NCBI GenBank assembly: GCA_040384765.1
Contig: JAZKIQ010000004.1
Location: forward strand, 63,434 to 127,433
DNA: 64,000 bases
Reading direction: 5' to 3'
Source: Patescibacteria group bacterium
GTDB lineage: Bacteria; Patescibacteriota; Minisyncoccia; Phycocordibacterales; JBBUBG01
Shown here: piece after piece, positions 3,876 through 62,260 of the stretch
Numbering within the stretch: the first letter of the stretch is position 1
How the letters are laid out: each line of letters begins with the position of its first letter
Notes under the pieces: model-generated
The model's input: the letters and a program-made list of their open reading frames with translations, nothing else
Database searches by the model: none
Told to the model about the DNA's origin: nothing
Translations under genes and position numbers: made by a program

Positions 3876-4053
3876 GTGTTCGCAATCTCGCGTCCTGTCA
3901 AAACGCCGGAGTTCCGAGCGAAAAACGAGATGGAGTTCGAGCCGTATAGTATACGGCTCGGGCGAAGCGCAGTTTTGCAGCCGGAACTCCGGCGTTTTGG
4001 CGGACGAGCGATACTTTCAGCCCATCCCTTCGCGGCGAGATTGTGAACACTGC
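3876..4053. other. Nested perfect inverted repeats (candidate structured RNA or element scar)
   Basis: Outer 18-bp arms 3876-3893/4036-4053 (one G-U). Inner 18-bp arms caaaacgccggagttccg 3899-3916 and cggaactccggcgttttg 3981-3998. Internal hairpin gagccgtatagtatacggctc. Confidence 0.35.
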
Positions 4054-9738: not shown

Positions 9739-10956
9739 TTAGGATGCTGCTTCGTCAATTGAAGCGGTGCCCTCTTCGGGGATTTCTTTTTCGGGGGTAG
9801 CTTCAGGTTTTGGTGCGGCGGTTGAGCGGATGTCGATCTTCCAGCCAGTGAGGCGGGCGGCAAGGCGCACGTTCTGGCCACCTTTGCCGATGGCGAGAGA
9901 AAACTGGTCCTCATCTACGAATACGGTTGCCTCTTTCGACTCGGATCGGAGCTCTATGCGGCTGATCTTGGCAGGGGAAAGGGCTGAGGAGATATACTCG
10001 TCGGCTTTGAGAGAGAATTCGATCACATCGATCTTCTCGCCTCCAAGCTCGCTGATCACCGTCGACACGCGTACGCCGCGCTGACCTACGCATGAGCCGA
10101 CAGGGTCGATGTTGGGGTCTTTAGAAGCGACAGCGATCTTGGTGCGGCTGCCTGGCTCGCGAGCAATGCTCTCGATCGTGACCGTACCCTCTGCAATCTC
10201 GGGTGTCTCTACTTCAAAAAGCTTTGCGACAAACTGGGGATGGGAGCGTGACATGCGCACGTTTACGCCGCGAGGAGTGTCCTCAACCGAGAAGAGGTAT
10301 GCTCGAATGCGCTCGCCTTGGCCGAAATGCTCGCCAGGGATCTGCTCTTCGCGAGGAAGAATACCGGTCGTGCGTCCGAGGTCCACAAAAAGAGTCCCGC
10401 GCTCGACGCGTTGTACCTTTCCTGAAACGATCTCTCCCTGGCGCTTGCCGTACTCACCGATCACGGCGCCTCGCTCTGCTTCGCGGATGCGCTGAATGAT
10501 CACCTGTTTTGCGGTCTGAGCTGCAATGCGACCAAAGTCATCCTTCACCTCAAGCGGGAAGATGAGCTCGTCGCCAACCTTTGCACCTTTGCGAATCTTT
10601 TGAGCGTCCGCGAGCATGATGTGGTGCTCTTCATTGAAATATACCTTCTCTGGCACGAGCGATGCTGCGCCTTCAACATGATCCGCTGCGGCAGCTGGCG
10701 CATCATCTCCTTCGGCGCCCTCCTCGAGTGGGTCTTTGAGCATTGACTCGTCGACGACGATCTTTACCTGGTCAAACTCAACTGTGCCGATGTTGGCATC
10801 GAGCTTTGCACGGATGATCTGGCCTTTCTTGCCGTAGTCTTTTTTGTAGGCAGTAGCAAGAGCCATCTCGACGGCTTCGAGAACTTTTTCTTTTGGAATA
10901 CCGCGCTCCTCTTCGAGCTGAGCGAGAGCGGAATGCATTGTTTTGAGGTCGAACAT
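9739..10956 (-). CDS. nusA: Transcription termination/antitermination factor NusA
   Basis: 405 aa with S1 and KH domains (GSRTKIAVASKDPNIDPVGSCVGQRGVRV...). Confidence 0.94.
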   Translation of the reverse strand: MFDLKTMHSALAQLEEERGIPKEKVLEAVEMALATAYKKDYGKKGQIIRAKLDANIGTVEFDQVKIVVDESMLKDPLEEGAEGDDAPAAAADHVEGAASLVPEKVYFNEEHHIMLADAQKIRKGAKVGDELIFPLEVKDDFGRIAAQTAKQVIIQRIREAERGAVIGEYGKRQGEIVSGKVQRVERGTLFVDLGRTTGILPREEQIPGEHFGQGERIRAYLFSVEDTPRGVNVRMSRSHPQFVAKLFEVETPEIAEGTVTIESIAREPGSRTKIAVASKDPNIDPVGSCVGQRGVRVSTVISELGGEKIDVIEFSLKADEYISSALSPAKISRIELRSESKEATVFVDEDQFSLAIGKGGQNVRLAARLTGWKIDIRSTAAPKPEATPEKEIPEEGTASIDEAAS

Positions 10957-11068: not shown

Positions 11069-12064
11069 TTAGTACCCCCAGTCAAATGAGTCCCAGTCGG
11101 AGCTGACGTACTCGCTTCCGTACGAAGGAGGGAGGTTCCAGCTGTCGTCCGAGGACCAGATATCCCCAGAAATGAGGCTTCCCGTGAGGGGAAGATCGTT
11201 TGCGGAGTTTGAGTACAGGTAGTCGTAGCGGGCAGAGGAGATTGCGTTGAGTGTTTCTGGGTAGTACCCGTGGTCGTTGTCTGACATGTAGCCAAAGATA
11301 TCTTCATCATCAGAGAAGAGGGTGCTTGGCGTGCTCGCTGGTACGTAGCCACTCGAGTATGAAGTAGGGGAAGCGGAGTAAAACGGAGTCGAGGCATCAT
11401 ACGTGCGACCGTAGTTTTCGAGCTCTGCTACATAGCCTGAAGTAAGCGGTGCGCCTGGGTAGTACTCGCGTGCCGGGGCAAGGCGTGATGGCGAGATATA
11501 TGAAGAGCCGTTTACACAGTAGCCACAGCTGTTGCCAAGGTTGCCGAGCGATACGGAAGCGCTCCAGACTGTTGGGTATGGGCCCGAAAGGGGAACGATA
11601 TAGTAGTCAGGGGTGTAGGTGTTGTAGGAGGTAAAGCCAGAGCGCGTCGCAAAGGCAGACTGATTGTATGAGGGTGCGCCAAAAAGAGATGCCGACCCTG
11701 GTGCAGGAGGCGGATTTGAGCCAGGTGCTGGTGGCGGGTTTGATCCTGGTGCGAATGAAGCAATAGGAAGGATGTTTGCCGTCCGGGGGAGAGGCGCCAC
11801 TACGTTTGTATTTATATGTGTAGTACCACCACCAATAAAGGCTGGTCCGTTATTAATAGGAGCAATGGGTACTGGTGTAGCCACGGGAGCGGCAGCAAAA
11901 GGGAGCGGCTTTGTGGCAAGCGCGGTGGTGTTTGTAGACGATGGGTAGTAGGGGTTGCCGGTATAAAAGGCGGCATCGGTGACTACCTGGGCATGAGCAA
12001 AGACAGGGGAGGCAAGAAGTGCACCCCCGACAACCGCTTTTGCAATATATTTGGTGAGTTCCAT
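11069..12064 (-). CDS. Secreted low-complexity P/S/Y/G-rich protein with tandem PGSNPPPA repeats
   Basis: Signal peptide MELTKYIAKAVVGGALLASPVFAHAQ; repeat PGSNPPPAPGSNPPPAPGS. Confidence 0.6.
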   Translation of the reverse strand: MELTKYIAKAVVGGALLASPVFAHAQVVTDAAFYTGNPYYPSSTNTTALATKPLPFAAAPVATPVPIAPINNGPAFIGGGTTHINTNVVAPLPRTANILPIASFAPGSNPPPAPGSNPPPAPGSASLFGAPSYNQSAFATRSGFTSYNTYTPDYYIVPLSGPYPTVWSASVSLGNLGNSCGYCVNGSSYISPSRLAPAREYYPGAPLTSGYVAELENYGRTYDASTPFYSASPTSYSSGYVPASTPSTLFSDDEDIFGYMSDNDHGYYPETLNAISSARYDYLYSNSANDLPLTGSLISGDIWSSDDSWNLPPSYGSEYVSSDWDSFDWGY

Positions 12065-12095: not shown

Positions 12096-12123
12096 ATTAT
12101 ACACTAAAATAGGAAAAAGTCAA
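12096..12123 (-). promoter_or_regulatory. Consensus sigma70 promoter (TTGACT-16-TATAAT on minus strand) for the gene ending at 12064
   Basis: rc reads ttgactttttcctattttagtgtataat; the -35 box overlaps the left arm of a family-1 repeat. Confidence 0.65.
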
Positions 12124-12238
12124 GCCTCTTCTGGATGTGTCTTTTTGGAACACGGATATTTTTCTGGTGAAAAATTCCTCGAGCTCGCTTCGGCCAAGCT
12201 CGCTAGTTTCCAAAAAGACACATCCAGAAGAGGTCTTG
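12121..12238. repeat. Family-1 element copy 1: conserved ~75-nt core clamped by a locus-specific 17-21 bp inverted repeat
   Basis: Core TTTTTGGAACACGGATATTTTTCTGGTGAAAAATTCCTCGAGCTCGCTTCGGCCAAGCTCGCTAGTTTCCAAAAA. Arms cctcttctggatgtgtc / gacacatccagaagagg. Confidence 0.8.
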
Positions 12239-12311
12239 AGAAGGGGAGGCGGACACTCATGTGGATAAGCACACACGAAGTGAAGAGATGGTGCTGTATG
12301 ATAAAGGCATT

Positions 12312-19720: not shown

Positions 19721-20878
19721 ATGCCTAAAGCCTTGAACCTAAAACCTAAAACTTATCGTGAAGGGCAAATAGTCCTCCTTTCCGTTTTCTTCATGGTGCT
19801 CATGTCGCTCGGGCTTCTTCTCGGGGGTACGGTCCCGCTCGTGCGAGAAACCCAAACGGTGAGAGATATCTCGCACTCTCGCGACGCATACTACTGGGCA
19901 GAAGGTGCTGTGGAGGACGTGGTGTATCGGATAAAAAAAGGGTACTCAGTGGGGAGTAGCGTCTCTGTGCCTATCGATGGGTCGAATGTGGTGGTGACGG
20001 TGACAGATGTTCCTGGCTCACGCATCGTGAGCGCTCTCGGAGACAAAAATAGCGATCGCAGGCGCGTGCAGGCGACGGTGGTGGCGGGTACTGGTATTTC
20101 GTTTAGCTACGGCATTCAGGTGGGTTCTCAGGGTATTTTCCTTGATAGCAATGCGGTCGTGAATGGGAGTATTTATACAAACGGAAGTGCAGAGGGAGAG
20201 AACGGATCAGCCGTGACGGGCTCGCTCTTTGCTGTGGGGAGCATCAGCTCACCCGACCCAGAGGTCACTGGCCAGGTGCAATCGGGAGCCGAGCCTCTCG
20301 CGCTTCCGGAAGTAGATATTGACTCGTGGAAGAGTGCCGCCAATGTGAACAACAACCCTATCGTGGGAGATGTTACCTATTCGGGTGCTGGCAACAGTCT
20401 CGGACCGCGCAAGGTGGTGGGAAATATGACCCTCAGTAATGGCGCCACCCTTACCGTTACAGGGCCACTTCATATTACGGGCAATCTTATCCTCGATAAC
20501 AACTCTACGCTCAAGCTCGACTCTTCTTTTGGCTCTGCGGGTACTGCGATCATTGTCGACGGAGAGGTCACGCTGTATAACAATGCGCTCGTGCTCGGTA
20601 CGGGCGCTACGCCAAAAGGGTATCTCCTTATCCTCTCGACCTCTTCGTCAGCAAACGCGATAAAAATCGACAACAATGGAAACGCGCAGGCCTATTTTTA
20701 TGCCTACAACGGCACGATCGTACTCGATAACAATGCGGGTGCCATGGCCATCGTGGGGCAGCGTGTCGTTCTTAATAATGGTGCGGAGGTGAATTATGAA
20801 ATCGGCCTGGCACACCCTCAGTTTTCAAGCGGGCCAGGTGGCACCTTTGAGGTGAAAGGTTGGAAGGAGACCGAATAA
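19721..20878 (+). CDS. PilX-like pilus-associated protein with predicted beta-helix (N/G/T-rich repeats)
   Basis: N-terminal hydrophobic IVLLSVFFMVLMSLGLLL; repetitive xNGxxL(T/V)V segments. Confidence 0.55.
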   Translation: MPKALNLKPKTYREGQIVLLSVFFMVLMSLGLLLGGTVPLVRETQTVRDISHSRDAYYWAEGAVEDVVYRIKKGYSVGSSVSVPIDGSNVVVTVTDVPGSRIVSALGDKNSDRRRVQATVVAGTGISFSYGIQVGSQGIFLDSNAVVNGSIYTNGSAEGENGSAVTGSLFAVGSISSPDPEVTGQVQSGAEPLALPEVDIDSWKSAANVNNNPIVGDVTYSGAGNSLGPRKVVGNMTLSNGATLTVTGPLHITGNLILDNNSTLKLDSSFGSAGTAIIVDGEVTLYNNALVLGTGATPKGYLLILSTSSSANAIKIDNNGNAQAYFYAYNGTIVLDNNAGAMAIVGQRVVLNNGAEVNYEIGLAHPQFSSGPGGTFEVKGWKETE

Positions 20879-20887
20879 GGTAGGCTC

Positions 20888-20981
20888 AAACCTGCAAAAG
20901 CTATTTGCCGTCGCTGTCTGGCGCTGCTGCGCCAGCGCTGACTCTCGCGCCGTCGCGCTGCTAGACACGGCAAATAGCTTT
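20888..20981. repeat. 24-bp perfect inverted repeat enclosing a 46-nt GC-rich loop (large terminator-like hairpin after the pilus cluster)
   Basis: aaacctgcaaaagctatttgccgt ... acggcaaatagcttttgcaggttt followed by ttcgc. Confidence 0.6.
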
Positions 20982-21060
20982 TGCAGGTTTTCGCTGGGGC
21001 GGCAGAGAATACGCACCCTTGATTCTCTCGGCGGGCTTACGCAACCTGTGATAAAGTGGA

Positions 21061-25516: not shown

Positions 25517-25978
25517 ATGACCCCAAAAATAATCGCGTATACCGACGGGGGCTCGAGAAATAACCCGGGCGCGGCAGGGTCTGGGGCCTATATTATCGAT
25601 GCGGAAGGGAACGTCCTCAAAAAGGCGTGGAGGGCGCTTGGTGTCGCGACCAACAATGTTGCGGAGTATACGGCAGTGATCCTTGCTCTCGAAGAGATAA
25701 AAAAGTTGGTGCCGGAAGCGGCGCGAAAAGATGCGGAGATCGAGATCCGGATGGATTCAGAGCTTGTATGTAGACAGATGATGGGGAGATACAAAATAAA
25801 AGCACCAGGATTGAAGCCGCTGTATGCAGATGTGCGAAATCTGATTATCGACTTTCCAAAAACGAAATTTGTTCATGTGCGGCGCGAGCTAAACAAAGAT
25901 GCGGATGCTCTTTCGAATGTGGCGATGGATGAAAGTGAGAAGATGCTAGCGAGCGCGAAAGAAGGGTTGTTCAAATAA
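25517..25978 (+). CDS. rnhA: Ribonuclease HI (start MTPKIIAYTDGG)
   Basis: YTDGGSRNNPG...EYTAVILALE...HVRRELNKDADALSN. Confidence 0.88.
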   Translation: MTPKIIAYTDGGSRNNPGAAGSGAYIIDAEGNVLKKAWRALGVATNNVAEYTAVILALEEIKKLVPEAARKDAEIEIRMDSELVCRQMMGRYKIKAPGLKPLYADVRNLIIDFPKTKFVHVRRELNKDADALSNVAMDESEKMLASAKEGLFK

Positions 25979-26088
25979 ATAAAACAGTATCTTTTTTGGA
26001 ACACGGATATTTTTCTGGTGAAAAATTCCTCGAGCTCGCTTCGATCAAGCTCGCTAGTTTCCAAAAAAGATACTGTTTTATTTATTTG
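25972..26088. repeat. Family-1 element copy 2; the left arm contains the rnhA stop codon
   Basis: 20-bp perfect arms caaataaataaaacagtatc / gatactgttttatttatttg around the conserved core (nearly identical to copy 1). Confidence 0.8.
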
Positions 26089-26097
26089 GTGCGCTCA

Positions 26098-26601
26098 CTA
26101 GCGAGAGAGGAGGAGGATTGAGAATGCAAATACGAGTGCTTGTGATCCGAGGCCAACTAGGTCCCATTTGAGGCGGGTCTTCGCATGCCACACATCGTGA
26201 AACTCTTTGAGCTCTTTCACGGGTGTTTTGCGCCAGAACCAGTAGACGGACTGCAGTGCGTCGGGAAGAATAGCTCCGATGGCGACGGCAGCGTAGGGGA
26301 GAAGGCCGGAAAAGGAGAGCTCGGGGCGTACTACCAAGATTCCAGCTGCTGTGCCAACGGCCACATCAAACGTAATCTTTAAGAGATCTTTTGCAATATT
26401 GCGAGAAGTGGGGTGGAGCTCGATATGGAGAACCTCTGCGCGCTCCTGTTTTGCCGTGCCTAAGTGGTAGTCGTAGTGGGGGATCGCGTCAGCGAGGTAG
26501 TGCGTAAACATGCCAAAAAGAAACCCGAGGCCTGGGTTTGCTATGCCGATCATTGGCTTTGCTAGGGCTTCTGCTATTACAATATGAGTTGCCAGGGTCA
26601 T
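26098..26601 (-). CDS. Membrane-bound hydrolase-like protein (DUF457/YdjM-like, tentative; start MTLATH)
   Basis: Polytopic; HYLADAIPHYDYHLG motif. The track ORF is extended through a palindrome. Confidence 0.45.
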   Translation of the reverse strand: MTLATHIVIAEALAKPMIGIANPGLGFLFGMFTHYLADAIPHYDYHLGTAKQERAEVLHIELHPTSRNIAKDLLKITFDVAVGTAAGILVVRPELSFSGLLPYAAVAIGAILPDALQSVYWFWRKTPVKELKEFHDVWHAKTRLKWDLVGLGSQALVFAFSILLLSR

Positions 26602-26603
26602 GG

Positions 26604-26642
26604 AGTATGTTTTAAAAGCATCCGCTGCTTTTAAAACATACT
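26604..26642. promoter_or_regulatory. 17-bp perfect palindrome (5-nt spacer) in the divergent region between the hydrolase-like gene and comEC; candidate operator
   Basis: agtatgttttaaaagca-tccgc-tgcttttaaaacatact. Confidence 0.5.
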
Positions 26643-29900: not shown

Positions 29901-29912
29901 TTAGATTTTCTT

Positions 29913-30010
29913 ATTGCCTAGTGAAGTGAGAGTCGCGAAAGTGTACTCACTTTCATGACCGAACGAATGACGGCAAAAAAGTGAGCACACTTTATGCTGC
30001 GACTGGCTCT
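29913..30010 (+). repeat. Family-2 element copy A (5' module); its 3' part encodes the last codons and stop of rpmB on the opposite strand
   Basis: ATTGCCTAGTGAAGTGAGAGTCGCGAAAGTGTACTCACTTTCATGACCGAACGAATGACGGCAAAAAAGTGAG. Confidence 0.75.
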
Positions 30011-30245: not shown

Positions 30246-30875
30246 TTGTATGCTACTATACCTCTACTCTCCATGCAAGGATTTTCACTCATTTTTGACC
30301 TCCTGATCGTCCTCGTTTCCGTCATTGTGCACGAAGTTTCGCACGGGTATATGGCGGCGTATCTCGGCGACCCTACAGCGAAGCTTTCGGGTCGCCTGAC
30401 CCTCAATCCGCTTTCGCACCTTGATCCGTTTGGCTCGATTTTGTTGCCAGGGATGCTCTATTTTATAGGTGCACCGATGATCGGATATGCAAAGCCGGTA
30501 CCGTACAATCCATATAACCTTCGCGGTGGGAAATGGGGACCTGCGCTTGTTGCAATGGCGGGACCCGGGACCAATTTTCTTATCGCTCTTATTTTTGGTC
30601 TTTTGCTCAGGTTTGCTCCGGTTGATCTGGCAACTGTCTCGGTGCTTTCGTCGATCGTACTTATCAATATTGTACTTGGTGTTTTCAACTCGATACCTGT
30701 GGCTCCGCTTGATGGATCGAAGGTGCTTTTTGCCCTTCTTCCATATCGCTACTATTGGGTAGAGGAGTGGGCCGAGCGATACAGTCTTGTGCTCGTGCTA
30801 CTTTTTATCATTCTTGGTTGGCCGCTCGTGGAGTGGATTGTGCCGCTTGTCTTCCGGTTGATTGTCGGTGTTTGA
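30246..30875 (+). CDS. Membrane zinc metalloprotease (site-2 protease/M50-like)
   Basis: HEVSHGY (HExxH) in a TM segment; LDGS motif. Confidence 0.8.
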   Translation: MYATIPLLSMQGFSLIFDLLIVLVSVIVHEVSHGYMAAYLGDPTAKLSGRLTLNPLSHLDPFGSILLPGMLYFIGAPMIGYAKPVPYNPYNLRGGKWGPALVAMAGPGTNFLIALIFGLLLRFAPVDLATVSVLSSIVLINIVLGVFNSIPVAPLDGSKVLFALLPYRYYWVEEWAERYSLVLVLLFIILGWPLVEWIVPLVFRLIVGV

Positions 30876-31001
30876 AGCACGTTTTAAAACCGCAGATTCG
30901 CGAAGCCGAGGGAGAAAAATGCGAGGTGTACACAAGGTACAGTGAGTGTTTTTCGACCGATGGCGACAAAGAAGGTGGGGTTTTAAAACGTGCTTCAGGA
31001 G
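30874..31001. repeat. 18-bp perfect inverted repeat enclosing a 92-nt loop, overlapping the protease stop codon
   Basis: gaagcacgttttaaaacc ... ggttttaaaacgtgcttc. Confidence 0.6.
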
Positions 31002-32347: not shown

Positions 32348-32818
32348 ATGCGACGCAAAGTAAAAGGACGAAATATAGTAAAACCGGATTTCAAATACAA
32401 TTCGGTGAAGATTGCTCAGTTCATCAACTACACCATGGAGGATGGCAAGAAGGAGGTTGCCCGAAAGGTGGTGTACGGTATGCTCGAGGATCTGAAAAGG
32501 GATATGAAGGTTGAGAACCCGGTAGAGCTTTTTGAGATTGCGATCAAGAACGTGGCGCCTTCAACCGAGGTGCGCAGCCGCCGCATTGGTGGTGCTACAT
32601 ACCAGGTACCTCGCGAGGTTCGTCCGGAGCGTCGACAGGCACTTGCGTATCGCTGGATTCTTGATGCAGCACGCAGCAAGAAAGGTTCGCCAATCCAGAA
32701 GCGTCTTGCGGATGAGATTATCGCTGCATCAAAGAACGAAGGGGAAGCGGTGCGCAAGAGAGAGAACACTCAGAAGATGGCTGACGCGAACCGGGCATTT
32801 GCACATTTTGCTTGGTAA
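32348..32818 (+). CDS. rpsG: Ribosomal protein S7
   Basis: Canonical S7 sequence. Confidence 0.96.
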   Translation: MRRKVKGRNIVKPDFKYNSVKIAQFINYTMEDGKKEVARKVVYGMLEDLKRDMKVENPVELFEIAIKNVAPSTEVRSRRIGGATYQVPREVRPERRQALAYRWILDAARSKKGSPIQKRLADEIIAASKNEGEAVRKRENTQKMADANRAFAHFAW

Positions 32819-32820
32819 GT

Positions 32821-32931
32821 GGCGCTCGCCACAGTTCCTTTTTGGAACACGGATAATTTTTTGCTAAAAATTTCCTCGAGCTCGCGCCGGTCGCGCTCCC
32901 TAGTTTCCAAAAAGGAACTGTGGCGAGCGCC
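32821..32931. repeat. Family-1 element copy 3, inside the str operon between rpsG and fusA
   Basis: 18-bp perfect arms ggcgctcgccacagttcc / ggaactgtggcgagcgcc; core variant ...GGATAATTTTTTGCTAAAAATTTCC... Confidence 0.8.
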
Positions 32932-32989
32932 CTCGCTTGTTTCGAGTGCGCGATTGCCGGATTTTAAATAAAAATAAATTACACAAGGA

Positions 32990-35125
32990 ATGGAACGTGA
33001 CTATCCTCTAGAGAAAGTACGCAACTTCGGTATCATCGCTCATATCGACGCGGGAAAGACGACAACGTCCGAGCGTATTTTGTACTACACCGGAGAGACT
33101 CATAAGATCGGTGAGGTGCATGAAGGAGAGACAGTTACGGACTGGATGGAGCAGGAGCGCGAGCGTGGTATCACTATTACTGCCGCCGCTATCACCTGTT
33201 TTTGGAACCCGACCTACGTGGCAAAAGGGGATGTTTCAAAGAAACATCGTTTCAATATTATCGACACTCCGGGGCATATCGACTTTACCGTAGAGGTAAA
33301 GCGATCGCTCCGCGTGCTCGACGGTGCTGTCGTGGTATTTGACGGAGTAGCCGGTGTAGAGCCTCAGTCAGAGACCAACTGGCGCTATGCCGACGATGCT
33401 ATGACCCCTCGCATCTGTTTCATCAACAAGCTCGACCGTATGGGTGCCTCATTTGAGCGCTCGTTCGCTTCGATCCTCGATCGTCTCAACAAAAACGCTG
33501 TTCGCGTGCAGATCCCTATGGGTCTCGAAGAGCATTTTGGCGGCGTGATCGACCTTCTCAAAATGAAGGCATATTACTTCGAAGGGGAGATGGGCAACAC
33601 GATTCGTGAGGAAGAGGTGCCAGCAGAATATATGGAGGAGGCAAAGAAGTATCGTGCAGAGCTCGTCGAAAAAATCGCCGCAGAAGATGATGCCCTTATG
33701 GCTAAGTTCCTCGATGGCGCAGAGCTCTCTCTCCCAGAGCTCAAGGCGGGTCTTCGCAAGGCAACGCTTGCGGTGAAGCTTATCCCTGTTTTTACCGGCT
33801 CCGCGCTCAAGAACAAGGGTGTACAGCTCGTACTCGATGGCGTGGTGGACTACCTTCCTTCGCCTGTAGATATGCCGCCAGTACACGGTATTGATCCAGC
33901 AACGGGTGCAGATATTGCCCGAAGCGCTTCTGATACAGAGCCATTTTCTGCTCTCGCTTTCAAGCTTCAGGTGGACCCCTTTGTGGGACAGCTCACGTTC
34001 TTCCGTGTCTACTCAGGTACGCTCGAAGCAGGAAGCTATATTTACAACGCAACAACAGGTGAAAAGGAGCGCCTTGGCCGCATCGTGCGCCTTCAGGCAG
34101 ATAAGCGGGAAGAGGTAAAGAAAGTGTTCGCGGGAGAGATCGCCGCCGCGGTAGGCCTCAAGAGCGCGCGCACTTCGCACACTTTTTGTGACGAATCGAA
34201 ACCGATCATCCTTGATCCGATCAAGTTCGTTGATCCCGTAGTATCGCTCAGGATCGAGCCAAAGACGAAGGCTGACCAGGAGAAGATGGGTATGGCGCTC
34301 AAGAAGCTTGCTGATGAAGATCCTACCTTCCAGATCACCTCAAACGCGGAAACCGCTGAGACGCTTGTTTCAGGCATGGGAGAGCTTCATCTTGAGATCA
34401 TGATCGATCGCATGAAGCGCGAGTTTGGCGTGGAGGCAACAGTGGGCAAGCCACAGGTGGCATATCGTGAGACTATTCTCGGTACCGCTGAAGCAGAGTG
34501 CAAATATGTAAAGCAGTCTGGTGGAAAAGGTCAGTATGCTCATGTGAAGATCCGCGTAAAGCCACTCGACCTTTCCGAAGAGCCTTCAAAGCAGACGAAG
34601 CGTCGAGATCATTTCGAATTTACAAACTCAATCAAAGGTGGACTCATTCCGCAGGAGTTTATCCCAGCAGTGGAGAAGGGTCTTATCGAAGGCCTTTCGC
34701 GTGGTGTTGTTGCAGGATTTGCGCTCGTGGACGTGTCGGTGGAGCTTTTCCATGGTTCGTACCACGATGTAGACTCTTCTGAAATCGCCTTCAAGATCGC
34801 AGGATCGATGGCCGTGCAAGATGCGGTAAAGCAGGCTCGTCCGGTGATCCTTGAGCCGATCATGCGCGTAGAGGTGGTGATGCCAGAACGATTTATGGGT
34901 GATGTTACCGGCTCGCTCAACTCAAAGCGTGGTCAGATCGAAGCGATGGAAGACCGTGGTCTCAACAAGGTGATCCGCGCCAAGGTGCCTCTTTCAGAGA
35001 TGTTTGGGTACGTAACGAACCTTCGCTCTATGACCGAAGGCCGCGGCAGCTCCTCGATGGAGTTCGCAGAGTATGCAGTGGTACCGCCAAACGTAGCCGC
35101 AACGATTGCCGCAAAGGTAAAGTAA
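32990..35125 (+). CDS. fusA: Elongation factor G
   Basis: [12 protein letters not shown]...; 711 aa. Confidence 0.97.
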
Positions 35126-35142
35126 ACAGAATTTTAATCAGA

Positions 35143-35170
35143 AAAGCCCCGGCAGATGCCGGGGCTTTTC
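35143..35170 (+). terminator. Rho-independent terminator after fusA
   Basis: aaaagccccggcagatgccggggcttttc. Confidence 0.7.
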
Positions 35171-35251
35171 TGATGTGGACACTGAAGGCCTATTCTAAAA
35201 GAAAATCCGCGGCGGCCCGAAGGGTCGCCGCGGATTGCGTGGAGAAGTCGA

Positions 35252-40199: not shown

Positions 40200-40865
40200 A
40201 TGAAAGCAACGATCTATACACAAGAAGGGAAGGAAAACGGCTCAATCGAGCTTGCTGATTCGATGTTTGGTCTCGCGTGGAACGGCGACCTCGTAAAGCA
40301 GGTTGTTGACTCGATGCTCTCTTCTCGCCGCAAGCCAGTTGCTCATACGAAGGGTCGCGGAGAGGTGCGCGGAGGAGGCAAGAAGCCATGGAAGCAGAAG
40401 GGTACAGGCCGTGCACGTCATGGATCAATCCGCTCGCCAATCTGGCGAGGTGGAGGAGTCACCCACGGACCAACAAACGAGAAAATCTTCGAGCGCAAGA
40501 TCTCAAAGAAGATGAAGGCGAAGGCTCTGCTCACGATCCTCTCCCAGAAGCTCCGCGAAGGGGAGGTGCTCTTTGTGGATTCGCTCGTGCTTAGTGCTCC
40601 AAAGACAAAGGAGGCTACGAAGGTGCTCATGGCACTCTCAAAGGTGAAAGGCTTCGAGAAAATGTCGTACAAGAAAGGCTCACGTGCCCTTCTTGCGGTG
40701 CCTGCACATGATGCGAAGCTCGCTCGCTCATTCCGCAATATTGCTTCTGTCGGTATCGATGAGGCTCGCAATATGAATCCAGTCGATCTGCTTCGCTACA
40801 AATATTTGGTGATCGCTCGTCCAGAAGAGTCGCTCAAAACGGTAGAGGGGAGGCTCGTTAAGTAA
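40200..40865 (+). CDS. rplD: Ribosomal protein L4
   Basis: Canonical L4. Confidence 0.95.
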   Translation: MKATIYTQEGKENGSIELADSMFGLAWNGDLVKQVVDSMLSSRRKPVAHTKGRGEVRGGGKKPWKQKGTGRARHGSIRSPIWRGGGVTHGPTNEKIFERKISKKMKAKALLTILSQKLREGEVLFVDSLVLSAPKTKEATKVLMALSKVKGFEKMSYKKGSRALLAVPAHDAKLARSFRNIASVGIDEARNMNPVDLLRYKYLVIARPEESLKTVEGRLVK

Positions 40866-44691: not shown

Positions 44692-44765
44692 TACATCACC
44701 CCTTTTAGGTGTTCCGTATCTTTATATAATACCTTATTTTTCCTGATCTGTCTAGATGGCGTCTA

Positions 44766-44930
44766 TTGCCTAGTGAAGTGAGCGTCGCGAAAATGTACTC
44801 ACTTTCATGACCGAACGAACGACGGCAAAAAAGGTGAGTACCCCGTCAGCTTTGCTGCGGACCCCAGTGTCAGTACTCTCACGCTGGGGTCCGAGGGCTT
44901 GCCCCGGGGTTAATACCCTTTATTTTTGCC
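44766..44930 (+). repeat. Family-2 element copy B (full length); its 3' module encodes the last ~14 codons and stop of the pterin dehydratase gene on the opposite strand
   Basis: 5' module ATTGCCTAGTGAAGTGAGCGTCGCGAAAATGTACTCACTTTCATGACCGAACGAACGACGGCAAAAAAGGTGAG; 3' module TACCCCG-hairpin-hairpin-GGGCTTGCCCCGGGGTTAATACCCTTTATT. Confidence 0.8.
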
Positions 44931-60831: not shown

Positions 60832-61041
60832 CGGGACGTGGTGTAACGGTAACATTCACGAGATGGGGTCGAATCTTTTGTCGGGCTATAGTGTAACGGT
60901 AACATTCACGATTCGGGTTCGTGAGACTCTGGGTTCAAATCCCAGTAGCCCGACAAAAGATTTGACGGGAATGCCCCAAGCGCATTCCCCGGATTTTCAG
61001 CAGAAAATGTGAGACTCCGGGTTCAAATCCCGGCGTCCCGA
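60832..61041 (+). tRNA. Split or nested tRNA-Pro(UGG)-like gene: 5' half 60832-60868, 3' half 61007-61041, interrupted by 138 nt that contain the tRNA-Pro(CGG) gene
   Basis: Acceptor CGGGACG pairs perfectly with CGTCCCG; T arm CCGGG-TTCAAAT-CCCGG (compensatory relative to the inner tRNA); anticodon loop GATGGGG. Confidence 0.4.
60882..60953 (+). tRNA. tRNA-Pro (anticodon CGG)
   Basis: Hand-folded: acceptor CGGGCTA/TAGCCCG; D stem GTGT/ACAT; anticodon stem CACGA/TCGTG; loop TTCGGGT; T arm CTGGG-TTCAAAT-CCCAG. Confidence 0.8.
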
Positions 61042-61159
61042 CTGAGCAAGGCGAAGGAGCGGAGGAGAAAATGCCCTGCGGCATTTTTGTTCGGTATTTG
61101 AAGGACTTTTCAATGTCGAGCAATGCGAGACGTGAAAAGTACCCGCGACGGTAGTCGAA

Positions 61160-62101: not shown

Positions 62102-62260
62102 ATTGCCTAGCGTAGTGAGAGAAATGAAAAGAGTACTTTTTATTTCCGAACGAGCGACGGCAAAAAAGGGCAGATACCCCGCCGCTTTGCGGCGCCCCGT
62201 ACAAACAGTACACTGGTTGTACGGGGCGGGGGCTTGTCCCGGGGTTAATACCCTTTATTC
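62102..62260 (+). repeat. Family-2 element copy C, immediately upstream of the cupredoxin gene
   Basis: GATTGCCTAGCGTAGTGAGAG...CGAACGAGCGACGGCAAAAAAGGGCAGATACCCCG-hairpins-GGGCTTGTCCCGGGGTTAATACCCTTTATT. Confidence 0.75.

Follow-up and report, generated by a model that had tools for sequence, protein, structure and literature searches.

Family-1: a candidate family of structured three-way-junction modules with locus-specific closing stems in Patescibacteria

We analysed a stretch of 64,000 nt from a Patescibacteria group bacterium (assembly GCA_040384765.1, contig JAZKIQ010000004.1, positions 63,434 to 127,433; hereafter the window), in which a short structured repeat, here named Family-1, occurs in three clear copies (Table 1). 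The source is a Paceibacteria-like metagenome-assembled genome, and its S7 and NusA have 100% matches among NCBI proteins from such genomes. Patescibacteria have tiny, streamlined genomes, and to our knowledge almost nothing is known of their non-coding RNA or repeat content. Copy 1 lies between a gene on the reverse strand starting at 12064 and a forward-strand gene at 12261; copy 2 carries the stop codon of rnhA (RNase HI; TAA, 25976-25978) inside its 5′ arm and faces a convergent gene that ends at 26098; copy 3 begins 2 nt past the stop codon of rpsG (32816-32818), with fusA starting at 32990, 59 nt downstream of it. These are the three contexts given in an earlier note on this DNA (a divergent region, a convergent end over the rnhA stop codon, and the rpsG-fusA operon), and repeat finding reproduced the three copies of the 75-nt core reported there, all on the forward strand: 12142-12216, 25993-26067 (97% identical to copy 1, with bounds slightly corrected), and 32839-32913 (85% identical). 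The 17-mer TTTTTGGAACACGGATA at the 5′ end of the core occurs three times in the window against an expectation of 0.18, and none of 100 shuffles reached three occurrences.

Each core is held in a perfect inverted repeat, of 26 nt in copy 1 (12125-12150/12208-12233), 30 nt in copy 2 (25972-26001/26059-26088), and 27 nt in copy 3 (32821-32847/32905-32931), and the gap from arm to arm is 57 nt in all three. The inner arm, TTTTTGGAA/TTCCAAAAA, is the sole arm part that the copies have in common; the outer 17-20 bp of each closing helix are unrelated and unique to their locus (outer arm parts CCTCTTCTGGATGTGTC, CAAATAAATAAAACAGTATC, and GGCGCTCGCCACAGTTCC). The self-complementary arms of 17-20 bp described in the earlier note are thus the outer parts of helices of 26-30 bp. 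In copy 1 the helix resumes past a 1-nt bulge and continues for another 5 bp (TCAAG with CTTGA), so that the extent first assigned to it, 12121-12238, almost equals the full hairpin. Both strands fold into a single long hairpin with an apical three-way junction (fold z-scores about −10 to −12). A loop of 57 nt, where an intrinsic terminator has one of 3-8 nt on a short GC-rich stem, together with the lack of a U-tract after copies 1 and 3, excludes an ordinary terminator, and arms that differ between copies, with no target-site duplications, exclude a classical MITE, or miniature inverted-repeat transposable element, with terminal inverted repeats (TIRs); the earlier note was right on both counts. 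A more diverged relative (20888-20990) lies 3′ of the stop codon of the gene at 19721-20878 and upstream of tpiA; the covariance model, run with its default filters, did not reach it.

The structure of the core was worked out on an alignment of 30 distinct copies from many genomes (alignment A1), which is the basis for all column and pair counts given here. Three helices meet in it. P1 is the closing helix, with the inner part GGAA(c)AC/GUUUCC; P2 rises from a GGA/UCC base through a bulged U, an A-U pair, and 6 variable bp to a UGCU loop; and P3 starts from a CGA/UCG base, followed by an invariant GCUC bulge of 4 nt and by 4 variable bp, and is capped by a C(N)GUC loop. The junction strands, U and CUA, are almost invariant while the helices covary; 28 columns of the alignment are invariant, and about 17 conserved nucleotides are unpaired, gathered at the junction, the bulges, and the loops. 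Pairing is kept in 94.9% of cells, and 20 of the 30 pairs have changed on both sides (neither value was reached in 500 shuffles), with 160 double-change cells observed against 43 in shuffles. When the register is slid, pairing drops to 37-58%, the upper value being that of a one-column slide. An initial pairing for P3 with a 2-nt bulge was dropped, since it left only 74% of cells paired; the register with the GCUC bulge gives 91-93%, with all four pairs covarying, and it was a correlated change from G58-C71 to A58-U71 that indicated it. P1, P2, and P3 all covary, and at least seven different P2 helices occur, every one of them fully Watson-Crick. G-U pairs make up less than 1% of cells (none among 300 cells in P2), though switches from U-A to C-G are common; in the outer part of P1, 13 G-U pairs stand against 6 A-C mismatches.

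The window copies sample this variation. Copies 1 and 2 differ at only 2 of 75 nt, both in the P3 loop, and their arms show no similarity; the P3 variant that they have in common (GCUU..AAGC in copy 1) is found in these two copies only and is derived. In copy 3, internal changes had been noticed in the ctcgc...gctcgc segment; this is P3, and P2 has changed as well, by compensatory substitutions. A conserved fold with compensatory changes in independent sequences, the generic mark of a structured non-coding RNA, is present in the aligned copies, and the comparison shows the predicted fold of the module to be a tight three-way junction. The proposal of a structured element whose stem covaries freely is therefore supported, for the internal helices and for the arms, which change in a compensatory way between related copies (L020/L031/L043, the two copies A and B of L008, and L026 against L032; L numbers denote loci outside the window).

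Table 1. Positions and structural parts of Family-1 copies in the window
Feature	Position	Strand	Remarks
Copy 1, whole hairpin	12120-12239	+	Divergent promoter/5′ untranslated region; Shine-Dalgarno sequence GGGGAGG of the gene at 12261 directly after; covariance model score 86.5 bits
Copy 1, P1 5′ strand	12125-12153	+	Arm 12125-12141; conserved TTTTTGGAA 12142-12150; bulged C 12151; AC 12152-12153
Copy 1, P2	12154-12178	+	GGA-u-A and 6 bp; loop UGGU 12165-12168 (family consensus UGCU)
Copy 1, P3	12180-12202	+	CGA/UCG base; invariant bulge GCUC; 4-bp upper stem GCUU/AAGC; loop CGGCC
Copy 1, junction CUA, then P1 3′ strand	12203-12233	+	GU, UUCCAAAAA, arm GACACATCCAGAAGAGG
Copy 1, CTTGA	12235-12239	+	Partner of native TCAAG 12120-12124
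Copy 2, whole hairpin	25972-26088	+	30-bp perfect helix; between convergent genes; covariance model score 91.7 bits
Copy 3, whole hairpin	32821-32931	+	rpsG-fusA spacer; P2 AAUUUUU/AAAAAUU (compensatory); P3 GCGC/GCGC; covariance model score 95.5 bits
Copy 3, 8 extra nt CGAGCGCC	32924-32931	+	Pairs with conserved family 5′ flank motif GGCGCTCG (32821-32828)
Diverged Family-1 relative	20888-20990	+	24-bp perfect arms; P2-like hairpin CUGGCGC-UGCU-GCGCCAG; CGCGCCGUCGCG..GCUAG; family flanks TAAGGTAGGCTC/TCGCTGG

The search for the core beyond the source genome that had been proposed proved productive. An exact-pattern scan of representative genomes gave eight true loci, in metagenome-assembled genomes of Patescibacteria labelled Paceibacterota or Saccharibacteria, and a scan of metagenomes gave about 27 further contigs, once chance matches in coding DNA without the 3′ half had been set aside; every one of the true matches (about 35 in total) had a complete small core. 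The pattern had no match in viral contigs, phages, or plasmids. At the gathering threshold of Rfam 15 the only match in the window is a tRNA, and a scan of copy 3 at a permissive E-value returned nothing but miRNA precursor models, matched as generic long hairpins and far below threshold; no Rfam 15 family fits, including hammerhead, twister, pistol, hatchet, the riboswitches, and TwoAYGGAY. A literature search on intergenic repeats of Patescibacteria and on insertion into hairpin loops returned nothing relevant. Family-1 is best explained as an uncatalogued family of roughly 60-nt structured modules of Patescibacteria. Several simpler assignments of the core were tried and rejected: it is not coding, as no open reading frame is conserved and the only frame open in copy 1 has a stop at codon 5 in copy 3; a sigma-54 promoter fails on spacing; in a sigma-70 promoter (TTGGAA-17-TAAAAT) the “−10” would fall within a covarying helix; and the GCTCGCTCGCT runs at 40718 and 49201, considered as empty target sites, lie inside the coding sequences of rplD and rplN.

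Family-1 keeps a regular position with respect to genes. In about 21 of 31 copies the distance from the end of a co-oriented open reading frame to ACACGG is 13-37 nt, which puts the start of the hairpin, or of its conserved 5′ flank, 0-3 nt past the stop codon; one copy begins directly after a tRNA, and none of the 31 is clearly antisense. The stop codon of the upstream gene often falls within the 5′ arm (for example, in copy 2, L004, and L008A). Upstream lie housekeeping genes with no relation to one another: rnhA (twice), macB/ftsX (twice), rpsG, rplB, infB, dnaN, parB, greA, rpsA, recG, hsp20, and others. In L043 a canonical terminator follows about 20 nt downstream of the element, which marks the element as a feature of the 3′ untranslated region (UTR) and not as the terminator itself. 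Many copies have further flanks in common: the 5′ arm is preceded by stop-A(A/G)GGCUCGCUCG and the 3′ arm is followed by CUCGCU..; these flanks are present in copy 3 and in the diverged relative, and absent in copies 1 and 2. Five copies (group B: L019, L011, L002, L010, and L024) are nested in a terminator-like outer helix, A-rich in its 5′ strand and T-rich in its 3′ strand, within which the flank strands are kept as an internal loop, UUUCUCG/YUCRAC. Outside the window genome the median helix length is about 18 bp, a rough guide only, as the survey was ungapped and under-counts bulged stems. At one locus (L008 2962-3290, reverse strand) two copies 230 nt apart bracket a tRNA gene, one placed after hsp20 and the other at the 3′ end of the tRNA.

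The core and the arms have separate histories. L026 (1-700) and L032 (4641-5400, reverse strand) are orthologous loci, with coding flanks about 87% identical; their arms are identical at 10 of 16 positions with every change compensated and their CTCG flanks are identical, while the cores belong to subfamily 1b in the one and subfamily 1 in the other. This looks like a cassette-like swap of the core in a retained stem. L032, L040, and L026 have 16-bp arms and flanks in common at different loci, and the two copies of L008 have identical cores and arms that share AAGCAAAAG and differ by three compensated pairs, as the arms of L020, L031, and L043 also differ by compensated changes. Whole units have thus been duplicated, arms change at close to the neutral rate without loss of pairing, and cores can be exchanged inside the stem.

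The flanks of copies 1 and 3 indicate where stems of this kind may come from. TCAAG at 12120-12124 is native, being conserved in L052, and its partner CTTGA at 12235-12239 has no counterpart in L052 or L053, which suggests that the 3′ side of copy 1 was templated from the 5′ flank. In copy 3, CGAGCGCC sits directly before the family 3′ flank motif CTCGCT (32932-32937), and L046 and L021 lack the insert; from this placement the helix has been extended outward. Because the stems of both copies run into 5′ flank that is native or conserved in the family, at least their outer parts would have been copied from the flank and were not pre-existing. Template switching during replication, an established mechanism (PMC8794818) that in a single step gives rise to stems of perfect reverse complement and to compensatory changes at several bases, is indicated by this extension into native flank, and its single-step action explains the absence of G-U intermediates.

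Comparison with the nearest available genomes, which are syntenic with the window (81% identity in S7, 75-82% in NusA, and 84-87% in L2), showed turnover at the orthologous sites. Run over about 132 kb of the syntenic sequence of these relatives, covariance model R1 detected no copy of Family-1, and all four window copies, counting the diverged relative, are missing at the orthologous sites; the absence from the closest relatives means that Family-1 is not essential. The content of the rpsG-fusA spacer differs among four related genomes, being Family-1, a second family, or a plain hairpin: in L048 and L051 an unrelated rod-shaped core lies between its own perfect arms, and in L050 there is a plain 12-bp hairpin. 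The second family (Family-2; L048 10475-10593 and L051 7176-7301) has a rod core of about 90 nt (CGYACUGCUUUGUUG...GUACAG...GCCUCGCAUURCAUC) with conserved internal loops and differing perfect arms; its core is not present in the window. At the 3′ end of rnhA, the convergent genes abut or overlap in L050 and L051, and the next gene is only 26 nt away in L048, so the whole 117-nt unit of copy 2 is extra in the window. L004, from a much more distant genome (48% identity in RnhA, with the same recJ-rnhA-comEC synteny), carries Family-1 after rnhA with unrelated arms. The site of copy 1 has no element in L052 or L053, and that of the diverged relative has none in L048.

Two side observations concern hairpins at such sites. 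At the site orthologous to copy 1, L052 (8684-8707) holds an 8-bp hairpin, GGGCTTTT-GGACCCTA-AAAAGCCC, with the same T-tract/A-tract polarity, and between a 335-aa gene and nusA (9843-9974) the same locus carries the arm GACTTTTCTTT three times in alternating orientation, so that a plain hairpin of 22 bp forms, one arm of which also belongs to a clamped UGCU-loop element antisense to its neighbours. The terminator after fusA is a perfect hairpin of 18-22 bp in the window (35137-35174), L048 (12805-12844), and L051 (9513-9559), with unrelated sequences; stems in this clade thus turn over completely and yet stay perfect.

Our preferred reading, to which we give a probability of roughly 0.4, is that Family-1 is a new structured RNA module, dispersed and transcribed in the sense direction, which undergoes duplication and exchange between hairpins. 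The module shares the coding strand with its neighbours and as a rule stands 0-3 nt past a stop codon or tRNA end, it can precede a separate canonical terminator, and it is multi-copy, patchy among relatives, and replaceable by another core within the same stem. It would be transcribed along with the upstream gene, in its 3′ UTR or intercistronic RNA, and act as RNA, with the conserved junction serving as a handle for a protein or, possibly, as a catalytic fold. The perfect helix of 26-31 bp would be a putative double-stranded RNA substrate of the RNase III type, and a cut there could uncouple the neighbouring cistrons or stabilise the upstream mRNA, and might release a stable three-way-junction RNA of about 80-100 nt. 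RNase III cleaves near-perfect double-stranded RNA of at least about 20 bp, and perfect helices of this length would suit it; the most economical mechanism would therefore seem to be a signal for processing or stability that also yields a small RNA. The arms would not be carried by the module; they may be built, extended, and kept perfect by template switching, that is, by fold-back copying of the 5′ flank, and the same process, or short-tract gene conversion, could move cores between hairpins. A role at the RNA level is favoured by the fact that the copies lie in sense, at the ends of genes or between cistrons, by their retention in very compact genomes, and by the invariant unpaired nucleotides.

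Several points weigh against this reading. We infer an RNA-level function from sequence alone; the scarcity of G-U pairs is untypical of a selected RNA and fits pairing at the DNA level equally well; and the sense orientation could in part follow from genes being co-oriented with replication. Neither copy 1 nor the L002/L042 locus is in a 3′ UTR, both being placed in divergent or 5′ regions, and a weak related match (L052 9886-9974) is antisense to both neighbours. Helix length varies, so a strict length requirement of RNase III is not evident. The patchy distribution, the near-identical paralogues, and the loss from close relatives make up the profile that a selfish repeat would show.

That profile leads to the first alternative, unlikely in our view though a serious contender: a selfish, non-autonomous mobile DNA element, whose single-stranded junction would be recognised in trans by an HUH/Y1 transposase of the IS200/IS605-RAYT type or by a tyrosine recombinase, the RNA having no role and the sense bias being a by-product of replication-strand bias. 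Pairing that is almost exclusively Watson-Crick, absence from the 132 kb of near relatives, and near-identical copies at unrelated loci (copies 1 and 2, the two L008 copies, and L032/L040/L026 with their common arms and flanks) are what such an element would leave; one lineage is even MITE-like, with shared 16-bp arms between direct CTCG(CTCG) repeats, and the window copies all lie on the strand with positive GC skew. However, no transposase, reverse transcriptase, or recombinase is encoded in the window or, by their Pfam lists, at the relatives' loci, and viral contigs, phages, and plasmids, as noted, are free of the pattern. A conserved centre with variable ends is the reverse of what elements recognised at their termini display, and the window copies lack target-site duplications. 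Finally, if the orientation of the element followed replication, and if about 80% of genes are assumed to be co-oriented with it, several antisense copies would be expected among the roughly 24 whose context is clear, and none is seen.

The known repeats of bacteria bear on the same question. Similar to the REP/BIME and REPIN sequences of Proteobacteria, Family-1 is short, multi-copy, and extragenic, sits after stop codons or between cistrons, would form stable hairpins in mRNA, and is patchy between strains; REP/BIME sequences affect the stability of mRNA 3′ ends. REPs, however, are imperfect palindromes of 20-40 nt with conserved arms (GTAG) that are mobilised by RAYT, whereas Family-1 has locus-specific arms and a conserved 57-nt three-way junction in the loop, and no RAYT or Y1-transposase-like gene was seen near it in the window or at the relatives' loci. 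Bacterial MITEs (Correia/NEMIS, RUP, ERIC, and BOX) are likewise small, non-coding, dispersed, structured, and co-transcribed with their neighbours (which for Family-1 we infer), and Correia elements are RNase III targets; but MITEs have conserved TIRs that match a parent insertion sequence, and target-site duplications, whereas the window copies have neither and no parent was found in the window or at the relatives' loci. The L032/L040/L026 lineage alone showed shared TIRs. In copies 1-3 the sequences on either side of the arms are not directly repeated; elsewhere many copies are bordered by direct CTCG(CTCG) repeats, but these do not vary from locus to locus, and so behave as a component of the unit or a favoured site and not as a target-site duplication.

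Three further comparisons concern the stem and the position. The intervening sequences of 23S rRNA, which are excised by RNase III, also replace a hairpin tip with a structured segment on a long helical stalk and are sporadic in distribution, but they occupy rRNA helices 25 and 45 and have no conserved three-way-junction core, whereas Family-1 lies in mRNA 3′ UTRs and spacers. Quasipalindrome template-switch mutations (PMC8794818) account for perfect locus-specific stems, for compensatory change without G-U intermediates, and for stem extension into the flank; they are a mutational mechanism and not an element family, and they leave the conserved core and its spread unexplained. Integron attC sites lie directly past the upstream stop codon in a fixed orientation, are defined by structure, and can carry branched variable terminal structures; but their outer R/L boxes (GTTRRRY) are conserved around a variable centre, and they come with an integrase and a cassette array, whereas Family-1 has no arm boxes, a conserved centre, and housekeeping neighbours (rpsG/fusA and rnhA). 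By analogy, Family-1 would work most like REP/BIME or Correia-type MITEs, with a stem that recalls the rRNA intervening sequences; by their defining tests it fails to qualify as a MITE, a REP, an intrinsic terminator, an attC site, or a member of any Rfam family.

A bolder reading, which we hold to be improbable, is that the three-way junction is the mature part of a new small RNA class of Patescibacteria (a trans-acting ribonucleoprotein component or a new self-cleaving ribozyme), which would hitch-hike on the 3′ ends of housekeeping genes, be excised through its stem, and spread without a transposase by template switching. If this is true, it would be a “loop-dwelling” element with a clamp made from host flank.

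More doubtful still is the literal loop insertion offered in the earlier note, in which the arms would be older intrinsic terminators or other functional hairpins and a core of about 75 nt was put into their loops. Part of the evidence agrees with it: many empty perfect hairpins of 16-24 bp follow genes in the source genome and its relatives, the plain hairpin of L050 stands in the rpsG-fusA spacer exactly at the position of copy 3 (where other relatives hold another core), the group B copies lie inside a terminator-like outer helix, the core seems to have been swapped in a retained stem at L026/L032, and the small hairpin of L052 at the copy 1 site has the same inner polarity. Against it, none of the orthologous sites in the relatives examined yielded an empty hairpin with matching arms. 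The convergent genes of the relatives leave no room for a hairpin at rnhA; the window arms are unlike the empty terminators of the source genome, which have an A-tract, a GC core, and a T-tract; the three window helices run perfect and unbroken as far as the core, and no loop bases are left over at the boundary; and the outer stems of copies 1 and 3 are demonstrably copied from the flank.

Least probable, by a little, is a gene present in multiple copies whose small RNA acts in trans, or a new self-cleaving ribozyme, that borrows upstream promoters and is excised via its flanking stem like rRNAs and some tRNAs: the conserved unpaired nucleotides, a stem that is variable yet always present, the L002/L042 copy (which is placed between a terminator and the start of a divergent gene, is followed by a T-tract of its own, and could stand alone), a tRNA-Pro gene of the window clamped by a similar flank-derived 14-bp stem, and the recurrence of positions in distant genomes (after rnhA twice and after macB/ftsX twice) would suit it, but the element is absent from the closest relatives, resembles no Rfam ribozyme or small-RNA model, shows no promoter evidence, and nothing points to a target or a cleavage site.

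An element of 110-135 nt that is kept after core genes such as rpsG, rplB, infB, dnaN, and rnhA in these genomes would be either a useful RNA signal or a very successful hairpin parasite. Its junction is conserved over distant lineages while its stem is rebuilt at each locus, and a conserved centre with free ends inverts the usual logic of bacterial repeats. If our preferred reading holds and the sense RNA is processed, Family-1 would give a major uncultured radiation either a new signal for processing or stability in the 3′ UTR or a new class of small RNA. The stems would also be concrete natural examples of template switching that makes long perfect helices, and the covariance model is ready for the annotation of Patescibacteria genomes.

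The window contains other hairpins and repeats. A tRNA-Pro(UGG)-like gene is split into 60832-60871 and 61010-61042, with complementary acceptor strands; joined, the parts are read by ARAGORN as a 73-nt tRNA-Pro. The interruption, of 138 nt, lies in the 3′ strand of the anticodon stem and holds a complete tRNA-Pro(CGG) at 60882-60954; a group I intron is ruled out by size. The acceptor stem of this inner tRNA is prolonged by the 14-bp flank-derived clamp (60868-60966), whose 5′ strand includes bases of the interrupted tRNA-like sequence. Two hairpins, at 3899-3999 and 30873-30997, have arms of 28 nt (86% complementary) and 27 nt (89%) around unrelated structured interiors of 45 and 71 nt. A third repeat family, 70-120 nt long, occurs at 29912-29981, 44764-44924, and 62105-62259 (ATTGCCTAGTGAAGTGAG...GACGGCAAAAAAG, then ...CCCGGGGTTAATACCCTTTATT, closed by TTGCC/GGCAA); it adjoins terminators and lies upstream of genes, has no Rfam match, and may be a leader or a structured repeat. 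A perfect palindrome of 17 bp at 26604-26642 falls where the 5′ ends of the divergent comEC (26600, forward strand) and a 188-aa membrane-protein open reading frame (26664, reverse strand) overlap, so that both reading frames open with the same peptide, ..YVLKA..AFKTY.

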